Assembly: GCF_056712565.1 (NCBI RefSeq)
Contig: NZ_CM160072.1
DNA length: 64,000 nt
Direction: 5' to 3' (one strand)
Shown: one piece after another, positions 15,001 to 18,000 of the stretch
Layout of the letters: the number at the start of each line of letters is the position of its first letter
Numbering within the stretch: the first letter of the stretch is position 1
Position numbers: made by a program

Positions 15001-18000
15001 TGTTCAGTACGCAGCCGCGAACGCTGTACGATCTGCTCGACGTTCGCGCATTACTGGAGGGCGAATCGGCAAGGCTGGCGGCAACGCTGGGAACCCAGGC
15101 TGATTTTGTTGTGATAACCCGCTGTTATGAAAAAATGCTCGCCGCCAGTGAGAACAACAAAGAGATTTCGCTGATCGAACATGCGCAGTTGGATCACGCT
15201 TTCCATCTCGCCATTTGTCAGGCTTCTCACAATCAGGTGCTGGTGTTTACGCTGCAATCATTGACCGACCTGATGTTTAATTCGGTGTTTGCCAGCGTAA
15301 ATAATCTCTACCATCGACCACAGCAAAAAAAGCAGATCGATCGCCAGCATGCGCGGATCTACAACGCGGTGTTGCAGCGGCTGCCGCACGTTGCCCAGCG
15401 CGCAGCACGCGATCATGTGCGGACCGTGAAAAAGAATCTCCACGATATCGAGCTGGAAGGCCACCATTTGATTCGCTCGGCGGTGCCGCTGGAGATGAAG
15501 CAGGGGTGACTGCCATCAAATCTGCTTTTCATACAATCGGTAACGCTTGTACGGCTCCGCCCCAATGCGTTCCAGCATGTTATTCATGCCTGTATTGGTT
15601 TCGAGGATCCATGACATTTCCAGCGCATCGATCTTCCGGCGGGCAAACGGATCGTGTAAGGCTTCAATCAATAACAGCGCAATCACCGGGCCGATGCGGC
15701 TGAACTGATACTCGTCCCGCACGCCCATCAGCGGCACTCGCGCAGTTCGCACACCGCTGACTTTCAAACGCCACAGCAATTTTGCCCAGCCGAAGGGAAA
15801 GAGCGATCCGTTCAGATCGACAATCGCCTCGTTGATGTTCGGCAAGCCAACAATAAACGCGCAGGGTGCAGAATCAATCTCAGCGATGTAGATCATATCG
15901 TCCGGCACCAGATATTTAAGTTGATCGCCCATGGTCGCGAATTCATGTTCGGTAAACGGCACAAATCCCCAGTTGTGCTGCCAGCCAGAATTGAAAATCT
16001 CACGCAGGATCTGCATATCTTCGGCAAACCGCTGGCGATTGATGCAGCGAATGGTCACTTTTTTGCGCACCTGATCCATCAGTTTTTTTAGCGCCGGAGA
16101 GAAAGTGAGATCGGTTCGCTGCATCCACCACGCCAGTAAATCAATGCCTTTGTGATAACCCAGTTGTTCAATATGCGCGGCATACCACGGTTTGCCGTGT
16201 GGCATCATCGCACAGGGCGGAGTGTCAAAACCTTCAATCAGTAATCCGCTTTCCTGATTGATATTCAGGCTGAAAGGCCCGCTGATCTTACTTGCACCTT
16301 GTGACTTCAACCACGCTTCCGCTGTACCAAACAACGCGGCAAAAACCTGCGGATCATCAATGGAGTCAATCATGCCGAAATGACCGGTATCTTCACCGTA
16401 ACGCTCACGGTGCAAGGTATCGATTTGCGCGGTAATCCGCCCGACTATCTGCCCGGCTTTTTTTGCTACCCACGCCTGCCAGATGATATGGTCCGTCCCC
16501 GGATTCTTCGCAGACAAATGCTCGCTGCGTTCAATGAATAAAGGGGGTATCCAGTTTGGATCATCGGGATAAAGTGATGACGGAAAAGCGATAAATGCCT
16601 TAAGGTCTTTTTTATTAATTACTTTTTCAATTTTAATCATCAGCAGATCGCATTCCATATCTCTGTGGATAACAAATAATTAACGGTGAAAAACAGGTTG
16701 CAACAGCAACGAACGGCATCTTAATAATCAACCCAATGAATACAAACAAAGAATAAATAGTATTTATTAATGATTACGATAAGGTCAAAGACTACACAGA
16801 AGCGCCACAATGCCTCTTGTCGATTTAAGGCGACCGGACAAGGCTCCTTCTTAATATATTCACAAATTAAATATCATTCACAATAAAAACAAAAAAGCCA
16901 AACTTATTATTTAAATCAATGTTCATTTTCACACCGATGAAAATACTATCTCATTTATCTTTTATGCCTATATAATCCACCGCATTATTGTCATTTTATT
17001 TTTGATATCCAATTTTTTCGTGGTGTATATGTCTAATAAAATCTTTACGCATTCCCTACCTATGCGCTATGCCGATTTTCCAACGCTGGTTGATGCTTTG
17101 GACTACGCCGCTCTGAGTAGCGCCGGAATGAATTTTTATGACAGACGTTGCCAACTTGAAGATCAACTGGAATATCAGACGTTAAAAGCGCGTGCCGAAG
17201 CTGGTGCGAAAAGGTTGTTATCGCTGAACCTGAAAAAAGGCGATCGCGTGGCGCTGATTGCCGAAACGAGTAGCGGGTTTGTAGAGGCTTTTTTTGCCTG
17301 CCAGTATGCCGGCTTAGTCGCCGTCCCGTTGGCGATTCCAATGGGCGTAGGTCAGCGGGATTCCTGGAGCGCCAAACTGCAGGGTTTACTGGCAAGTTGC
17401 CAGCCCGCAGCCATTATCACTGGTGATGAGTGGTTGCCACTGGTCAATGCCGCGACGCATAACAACAACCCCGAATTACATGTTTTAAGCCACGCCTGGT
17501 TTAAGGCATTACCGGAAGCCGATGTTGTGCTCCAGCGTCCAGTTCCAAACGATATCGCCTACCTCCAGTACACCTCCGGCAGCACCCGTTTTCCCCGTGG
17601 CGTCATTATCACCCATCACGAAGTGATGGCTAATCTACGTGCTATAAGCCACGATGGGATTAAATTACGCCCTGGCGACCGCTGCGTCTCCTGGCTGCCT
17701 TTCTACCATGATATGGGACTGGTCGGCTTTCTCCTGACCCCCGTCGCCACGCAGCTTTCAGTAGATTATTTGCGCACTCAGGATTTTGCCATGCGTCCTC
17801 TGCAATGGCTTAAATTGATCAGTAAAAATCGTGGCACCGTTTCCGTTGCACCGCCGTTTGGCTATGAATTGTGCCAGCGCCGCGTGAATGAAAAAGATCT
17901 CGCTGAACTGGATCTTTCCTGCTGGCGCGTCGCTGGTATTGGCGCAGAACCCATATCCGCAGAACAACTCCATCAATTCGCTGAATGTTTCCGTCAGGTT

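Follow-up and report, generated by a model that had tools for sequence, protein, structure and literature searches.

YghO of Escherichia coli, a 380-aa protein encoded next to a serine palmitoyltransferase operon, is very probably the ceramide synthase of an E. coli sphingolipid pathway, i.e., a tandem-GNAT orthologue of the bacterial enzyme named bCerS or Aca. The assignment as Aca/ceramide synthase has been in print since 2022. On the basis of homology yghO (ECD_02850) of E. coli BL21(DE3) was then named 'aca', an acyl-CoA N-acyltransferase and the orthologue of CC_1154 of Caulobacter crescentus (PMC9386255, Figure 9 legend). The link has already been drawn in the specialist literature, and the value of the present analysis lies in its confirmation by fold and synteny. 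We document the fold of YghO, its homology, its conserved gene neighbourhood and its distribution in E. coli. The public annotation of the family is wrong or empty, the names in use being 'protein YghO', 'DNA-binding transcriptional regulator' and 'dATP pyrophosphohydrolase'. The first-pass reading of this gene, which is known and poorly annotated, is correct.

The yghO locus

The window, a stretch of 64,000 nucleotides, is E. coli chromosome from the glc operon through pitB; over positions 15300-21200 its sequence matches that of strain ZJ3920 at 100% identity. The yghO open reading frame occupies 15516-16658 on the minus strand and encodes 380 aa starting with MECDLLMIKIEKV. An identical protein with the same ends is present in E. 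coli ZJ3920, where RefSeq names it 'protein YghO'. Only 6 bp separate the end of glcC from the yghO stop codon. Homologues are 374 aa long and align from the equivalent of Met7 of YghO, therefore the true start may be at coordinate 16640 instead of 16658. In the structural model presented below residues 1-10 are of lower confidence.

yghO is transcribed divergently from the biosynthetic operon across a spacer at 16659-17028, exactly as described in the first-pass annotation. Counted to 17029, where RefSeq has the fatty acyl-AMP ligase begin, this divergent promoter region measures 370 bp, and it is AT-rich (31.1% GC compared to 50.7% for the whole window). A scan of the 370 bp against Rfam gave no meaningful family match. 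Sigma-70-like and terminator-like matches are no more frequent in the spacer than in shuffled sequence, therefore we withhold any claim about regulation.

On the plus strand four genes follow. aasR (17029-18753) encodes a fatty acyl-AMP ligase or specialized acyl-ACP synthetase (NCBIfam NF006624, 868 bits, cutoff 600). The epi/cerR homologue (18750-19664), recognized by matches to SDR/epimerase families, encodes an NAD-dependent SDR and putative 3-keto reductase. acpR (19696-19944) has matches to acyl carrier protein families and encodes a specialized acyl carrier protein, and spt (19944-21116) encodes serine palmitoyltransferase (SPT; NCBIfam equivalog NF047599, 599.5 bits, cutoff 500). The stop codon of aasR overlaps the start codon of the SDR gene (4 bp), and the ACP/spt junction has an overlap of stop and start as well, which fits a single aasR-SDR-ACP-spt transcription unit. 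Beyond spt, on the minus strand and 4.5 kb from yghO, are second copies of the two LPS-extraction permease genes, lptG2 (21151-22230) and lptF2 (22227-23297), a pair identified by matches to TIGR04408/TIGR04407. This pair (21151-23297) is probably a sphingolipid exporter.

Fold and sequence family of YghO

Profile searches are silent about YghO. hmmscan against Pfam-A returned no match even at E<=10, PF00583 (Acetyltransf_1) included; nothing matched among the NCBIfam profiles; and a comparison with PDB sequences gave chance matches alone (E >= 0.08). Some YghO homologues do carry a precomputed PF00583 match. Therefore, the family lies at the limit of what profiles can detect, and the GNAT assignment is carried by the fold. 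The family itself is large: clustering at the 50% level leaves 6487 representatives at E<=1e-3, 1100 of them at E<=1e-30. Nearly all members are 370-400 aa long and match end to end.

The structure was predicted with AlphaFold2 on an alignment of 122 sequences, whose members are 31-48% identical to YghO. The model has a mean pLDDT of 96.8 and a pTM of 0.93, with a pLDDT >= 90 for 374 of the 380 residues. It is all-globular alpha/beta and consists of two consecutive GNAT domains, approximately residues 8-180 and 200-380. The top fold matches in Foldseek are all acyltransferases. Among solved structures the nearest are enzymes which acetylate sugars or small-molecule amines (glucosamine N-acetyltransferase, MshD and Eis), and YghO is 11-16% identical to solved GNATs. 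As judged by the predicted structure YghO is a tandem acyltransferase of the GNAT superfamily. The impression of a GNAT fold formulated in the first-pass annotation is upheld by model and Foldseek, whereas Pfam-A and NCBIfam lend it no match.

Several tandem-repeat GNATs have been solved, i.e., MAB_4324 (7q3a), the glucosamine N-acetyltransferase of C. acetobutylicum (5kf1), MshD (1ozp) and ORF14 of clavulanate biosynthesis (2wpw). Their acceptors for the acetyl group are sugars or small amines, and they are 13-16% identical to YghO. YghO is 40-90 residues longer than most solved tandem GNATs and belongs to a separate sequence family which Pfam does not recognize. N-myristoyltransferase, a eukaryotic enzyme acting on protein N-termini, and FemX-type transferases are far weaker structural matches and have no sequence similarity to YghO.

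In the legacy annotation K-12 YghO is a DNA-binding transcriptional regulator, with the divergent operon as its target. Family entries in databases are still named 'DNA-binding transcriptional regulator' or 'DNA-binding protein', and a divergent orientation over a shared promoter region is typical for regulator-operon pairs. Yet the two GNAT domains, at pLDDT above 95, account for the whole 380-aa chain. The model contains no DNA-binding module, be it HTH, winged-helix or other, as the absence of an HTH in the first-pass annotation had anticipated, and no regulator is among the fold matches. The fold comparison proposed there returned a tandem GNAT acyltransferase and not a DNA-binding fold. 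Moreover, the Caulobacter homologue is a structural gene needed for ceramide (PMC11087976, PMC9386255). A regulator is thus extremely improbable, and we reject it on the fold, a tandem GNAT without a DNA-binding domain.

YghO has no transmembrane-grade stretch, the Kyte-Doolittle maximum over 19 residues being 1.36. It is a cytoplasmic protein, soluble or peripherally associated with the membrane. The earlier description as a soluble protein of 380 aa is in agreement with these data, with the proviso that the start is perhaps Met7.

Conservation in the family is about equal between both GNAT halves. In the C-terminal half the motifs WxxNWGFxP (226-234) and ExSWxLExN (347-355) are near-invariant across the 122 family members, and a PFGW (288-291) is conserved. 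Conserved positions of the N-terminal half are R74, F94-G95, G127-P128 and G138-G143. Of single residues P128 and N355 are invariant, and R74, W230, R307, E347 and Y373 are near-invariant. By eye no canonical GNAT motif A (Q/R-x-x-G-x-G/A) could be recognized behind beta-4 of either domain. In the C-terminal domain the segment after beta-4 reads GVRDEYQFSRIGP, with G312 as the sole family-conserved residue, and beta-5 is followed by a motif-B-like N355-x-x-M-x-x-x-L-E-x-x-G. Since motif A is not evident and the profiles are silent, we infer acyl-CoA binding from the fold only.

Kinship with bacterial ceramide synthase and gene neighbourhood

BLASTP aligned YghO end to end with its homologue from Caulobacter sp. 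K31 (UniProt B0T2I5), with 167 identities in 381 positions (44%) and an E-value of 9e-112. The K31 protein, found via a search with a relative from Robiginitomaculum (Caulobacterales), served as a stand-in for CC_1154 of C. crescentus. For CC_1154 (Aca) itself against ECD_02850, Padilla-Gomez et al. 2022 list 44% identity, an E-value of 1e-107 and 98% coverage (PMC9386255, Table S2). The same table gives the identities between BL21 and Caulobacter for the other proteins, i.e., 53% for Spt, 41% for AcpR, 34% for Epi (CC_1164) and 42% for AasR. These authors note a cluster of all five genes for C. crescentus and E. coli BL21 alone (PMC9386255).

In Caulobacter bcerS (CCNA_01212 = CC_1154) is an acyltransferase gene needed for ceramide (PMC11087976, PMC9386255), and its product is reported to be a cytoplasmic peripheral membrane protein (PMC11087976). 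The enzyme and YghO are alike in length (about 375-385 aa), in their 44% identity and in belonging to the same tandem-GNAT family. The two loci share spt, acpR, aasR, epi/cerR, lptF2 and lptG2. They differ in layout and in content: yghO is a monocistron divergent from aasR-epi-acpR-spt, whereas the Caulobacter gene follows lptF2-lptG2 in the same operon; and homologues of LptC2 and cpgABC were not detected at the E. coli locus, which has yghQRST-type genes instead. In Caulobacter sp. K31 the gene of the homologue is located directly after LptF- and LptG-family genes (lptF2-lptG2-bcerS). The published order of the C. crescentus sphingolipid locus is CC_1156-CC_1155-CC_1154, and the LptF/LptG/bCerS order in K31 is the same.

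Eukaryotic ceramide synthases (Lag1p/CerS, TLC domain) use an acyl thioester to acylate the amino group of a sphingoid base. This is the same chemistry as proposed for YghO. The eukaryotic enzymes are polytopic membrane proteins (PMC11087976), whereas YghO is a soluble GNAT without a transmembrane segment. The similarity is one of convergence, not homology.

The gene neighbourhood was examined at 80 loci from a collection of species-representative genomes, retrieved with a 14-sequence alignment and scanned with the proteins of the window. In Serratia liquefaciens the homologue (81% identical) is divergent from genes for an AMP-ligase, an epimerase, an ACP and an aminotransferase, and the other flank, with dgkA and MatE, is unrelated to that of E. 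coli. The divergent arrangement of yghO and aasR-epi-acpR-spt is also present in Shimwellia, Pluralibacter, Erwinia, Hafnia, Rosenbergiella, Pseudomonas and Nitrococcus, and in metagenome-assembled genomes of beta-proteobacteria, Desulfobacteraceae and Gemmatimonadetes. In Nitrosomonas and others spt is elsewhere, and LptF2-LptG2 are about 1 kb downstream of the YghO homologue.

Linkage was counted at the 52 loci from diverse genomes which extend at least 9 kb on both sides. Within 10 kb of the YghO homologue spt or aasR is found at 32 of the 52 loci and LptF2/G2 at 33; one or the other is present at 48, and neither at four. This linkage spans Alpha-, Beta- and Gammaproteobacteria, Desulfobacterota and Gemmatimonadota. 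Its breadth is the strongest computational evidence for a role of the YghO family in sphingolipid synthesis.

Might YghO acylate another target, i.e., a lysine or N-terminus of a protein, a sugar amine or a siderophore, its proximity to the SPT operon being incidental? The nearest solved structures do acetylate sugars or small-molecule amines, and an orphan yghO persists in many E. coli which lack the operon. Further, Shimwellia has a second YghO paralogue without any sphingolipid gene nearby; its neighbours are an enterochelin-esterase-like gene and the gene of an ABC exporter, and some paralogues such as this one are possibly acyltransferases for other small molecules. These points are countered by the linkage to spt/aasR or LptF2/G2 across phyla, which is far beyond chance, by the 44% identity to the Caulobacter enzyme, and by the mere 11-16% identity to the solved GNATs. 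For E. coli YghO we therefore consider another target improbable. In a screen in which 25 GNATs were over-expressed in an acetylation-depleted strain, K-12 YghO was included and did not belong to those which generated new acetyl-lysine bands (PMC6199490); on this negative screen we reject a protein-lysine acetyltransferase.

The proposal from which this analysis started, that YghO is a bCerS-type N-acyltransferase beside its pathway, is thus supported by sequence identity, by gene linkage and by the predicted fold.

Proposed pathway and its distribution in E. coli

Our statements on catalysis by YghO, on its acyl donor, on the sequence of the steps and on expression of the locus are inferences. 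AasR would charge the dedicated carrier AcpR with a fatty acid. In BL21 AcpR (ECD_02853) carries a 4'-phosphopantetheine, and from co-expression of AasREc (ECD_02851) with AcpREc and SPTEc the authors concluded that AasREc can acylate AcpREc (PMC9386255). SPT would then condense acyl-AcpR with serine to yield 3-ketosphinganine; the BL21 enzyme favours acyl-AcpR, as tested with palmitoyl-AcpR of C. crescentus, and its product is 3-oxo-sphinganine (PMC9386255). YghO would attach a second acyl chain, taken from an acyl thioester, at the C2 amino group of the long-chain base. By analogy the donor would be acyl-CoA, with acyl-ACP as the alternative. The SDR would reduce the 3-keto group, either after N-acylation, as in the model of the Klein laboratory, or before. 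The product would be dihydroceramide, and its extraction towards the outer membrane is probably the task of the adjacent LptF2/LptG2 pair. The idea of sphingolipid transport by LptF2/G2 is already published, and the export role has been shown in Caulobacter (bioRxiv 10.64898/2026.04.12.717747). In BL21 producing 3-oxo-sphinganine, spots migrating like sphinganine and ceramide were seen in TLC and were ascribed by the authors to ECD_02852 and ECD_02850 (PMC9386255). The first-pass annotation had counted a complete pathway of three enzymes; this number has to be corrected, as the usual count is five genes (aasR, acpR, spt, epi/cerR and aca/bcerS).

YghO had also been placed between SPT and the reductase, a position with which one of the two published models agrees. 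In the Caulobacter model bCerS acts between SPT and reductase; oxidized (3-keto) ceramide accumulates when cerR is deleted, and CerR has the behaviour of a periplasmic protein, both of which favour acylation first (PMC11087976). The other model, that of the Geiger laboratory, is eukaryote-like and puts reduction first: ECD_02852 acts as keto-sphinganine reductase and ECD_02850 then converts sphinganine to dihydroceramide (PMC9386255). The pathway would be the same, with the SDR acting on 3-ketosphinganine and YghO on the resulting sphinganine. The N-terminus of the E. coli SDR reads MNQTVAVTGATGFIGKY, with the Rossmann motif at residue 8; a signal peptide is absent from this N-terminal sequence. 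Hence the compartment argument from Caulobacter cannot simply be transferred to E. coli, where the SDR could be cytoplasmic like SPT and YghO, and the argument would then be void. The E. coli sequence itself does not decide the order. We give reduction before acylation a less than even chance.

The distribution was examined in 5426 complete E. coli genomes. yghO is present in 4548, and 4068 possess the entire stretch from yghO to spt. In about 460 genomes yghO is intact and the operon is gone; either the locus has decayed recently, or YghO may have a further function. In strain LR-71-1 everything from the spacer to pitB is replaced by an IS1 element. K-12 has an IS5 at this site. The operon is therefore ancestral and common in E. 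coli, and some lineages have lost it. To our knowledge, as far as a limited literature search can tell, ceramide has not been reported in lipid extracts of wild-type E. coli.

A more far-reaching proposal is put forward as speculation which we ourselves regard with considerable doubt. About three quarters of sequenced E. coli, i.e., the 4068 genomes with the entire stretch, may possess a sphingolipid module which is intact and self-contained. Its members would be the ceramide synthase YghO, the exporter LptF2/LptG2 and, as a head-group or transport branch unlike CpgABC of Caulobacter, a YtfJ-like protein, a 278-aa protein, the flippase-like YghQ and the P-loop kinase-like YghR/S/T. Natural E. 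coli might then make an undescribed outer-membrane sphingolipid once silencing of the AT-rich promoter is relieved. It would have been missed since K-12 lost the operon in a deletion associated with an insertion sequence.

With YghO as its acyltransferase the ceramide pathway would be complete in the bacterium which has been studied best. By implication most wild E. coli, pathogens and BL21 included, have the genes for a sphingolipid which K-12 cannot make. The assignment also matters for heterologous lipid work in BL21, a host supposed to be free of sphingolipids. The assignment may also bear on outer-membrane biology, on host interaction and on susceptibility to polymyxins, the latter because sphingolipids are the target of colistin in Caulobacter (bioRxiv 10.64898/2026.04.12.717747).

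Names, start codon and a second copy of YghO

Members of the YghO family are deposited in public databases under names which include 'N-acetyltransferase', 'DNA-binding transcriptional regulator', 'DNA-binding protein', 'dATP pyrophosphohydrolase' and 'hypothetical protein associated with serine palmitoyltransferase'; among the matches listed no entry of the family is named 'ceramide synthase'. YghO itself has no match in either Pfam or NCBIfam. The annotated Met1 (start region 16638-16658, minus strand) results in a protein of 380 aa. The homologues of other genera are 374 aa long and their alignment begins at Met7; the confidence of the YghO model is lowest at residues 1-10.

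Shimwellia pseudoproteus possesses two copies, one linked to the cluster and a second paralogue of 72% identity (10016-11167 of L012, a locus fetched from this species). The latter is positioned between bamB-der on one side and, on the other, an enterochelin-esterase-like gene together with a double ABC exporter encoded as a fusion, and sphingolipid genes are absent within about 9 kb. The second paralogue may have a different substrate.

The SDR and the divergent spacer

The SDR, a homologue of Epi/CerR (18750-19664, plus strand), starts with MNQTVAVTGATGFIGKY; its Rossmann motif is at residue 8, and it lacks a signal peptide. In contrast, the CerR of Caulobacter is reported to be periplasmic (PMC11087976). 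This difference is relevant to the disputed order of N-acylation and 3-keto reduction.

The divergent promoter spacer between yghO and the operon (16659-17028) has a GC content of 31%, compared to 51% for the window. It has no match in Rfam, and promoter-like sites are not more frequent than in shuffled sequence. Its length varies by genus: Serratia and Shimwellia have about 700-800 bp here, E. coli about 360 bp. Nucleoid proteins might plausibly silence the spacer.

Genes beyond spt

In the window spt is adjoined by a second LptG/LptF pair (21151-23297, minus strand). The genes are paralogues of the LPS-export genes, and RefSeq labels them just 'lptG' and 'lptF', i.e., LPS export permeases. 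Such a pair also adjoins the YghO homologues of Pseudomonas, Nitrococcus, Nitrosomonas and Caulobacter K31, and LptF2/G2 are near a YghO homologue in 33 of the 52 loci with full flanks. In Caulobacter a role of LptF2/G2 in sphingolipid export has been demonstrated (2026 preprint, bioRxiv 10.64898/2026.04.12.717747).

The stretch downstream of the cluster (23328-28489) comprises a YtfJ family gene (23328-23888), a 278-aa protein which belongs to no NCBIfam family (23888-24724), the flippase-like YghQ (24724-26073), and YghR, YghS and YghT, three weakly dTMP-kinase-like P-loop proteins (26119-28489). Several Enterobacterales have relatives of the 278-aa protein alongside their spt cluster, and in Luteibacter one such relative is encoded near the YghO homologue. 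At matching positions the Serratia locus carries Polysacc_synt and Thymidylate_kin-like genes. The downstream genes may constitute a head-group or transport branch which is unlike CpgABC of Caulobacter.

Loss of the operon in E. coli

About 460 complete E. coli genomes have an intact yghO without the operon. In strain LR-71-1 (L086, its fetched locus, 5217-7536; window 16659 onward) an IS1 element takes the place of everything from the AT-rich spacer up to a pitB remnant. Together, the yghO-only genomes and this IS1 replacement suggest that the sphingolipid locus was lost in particular lineages, in association with insertion sequences.
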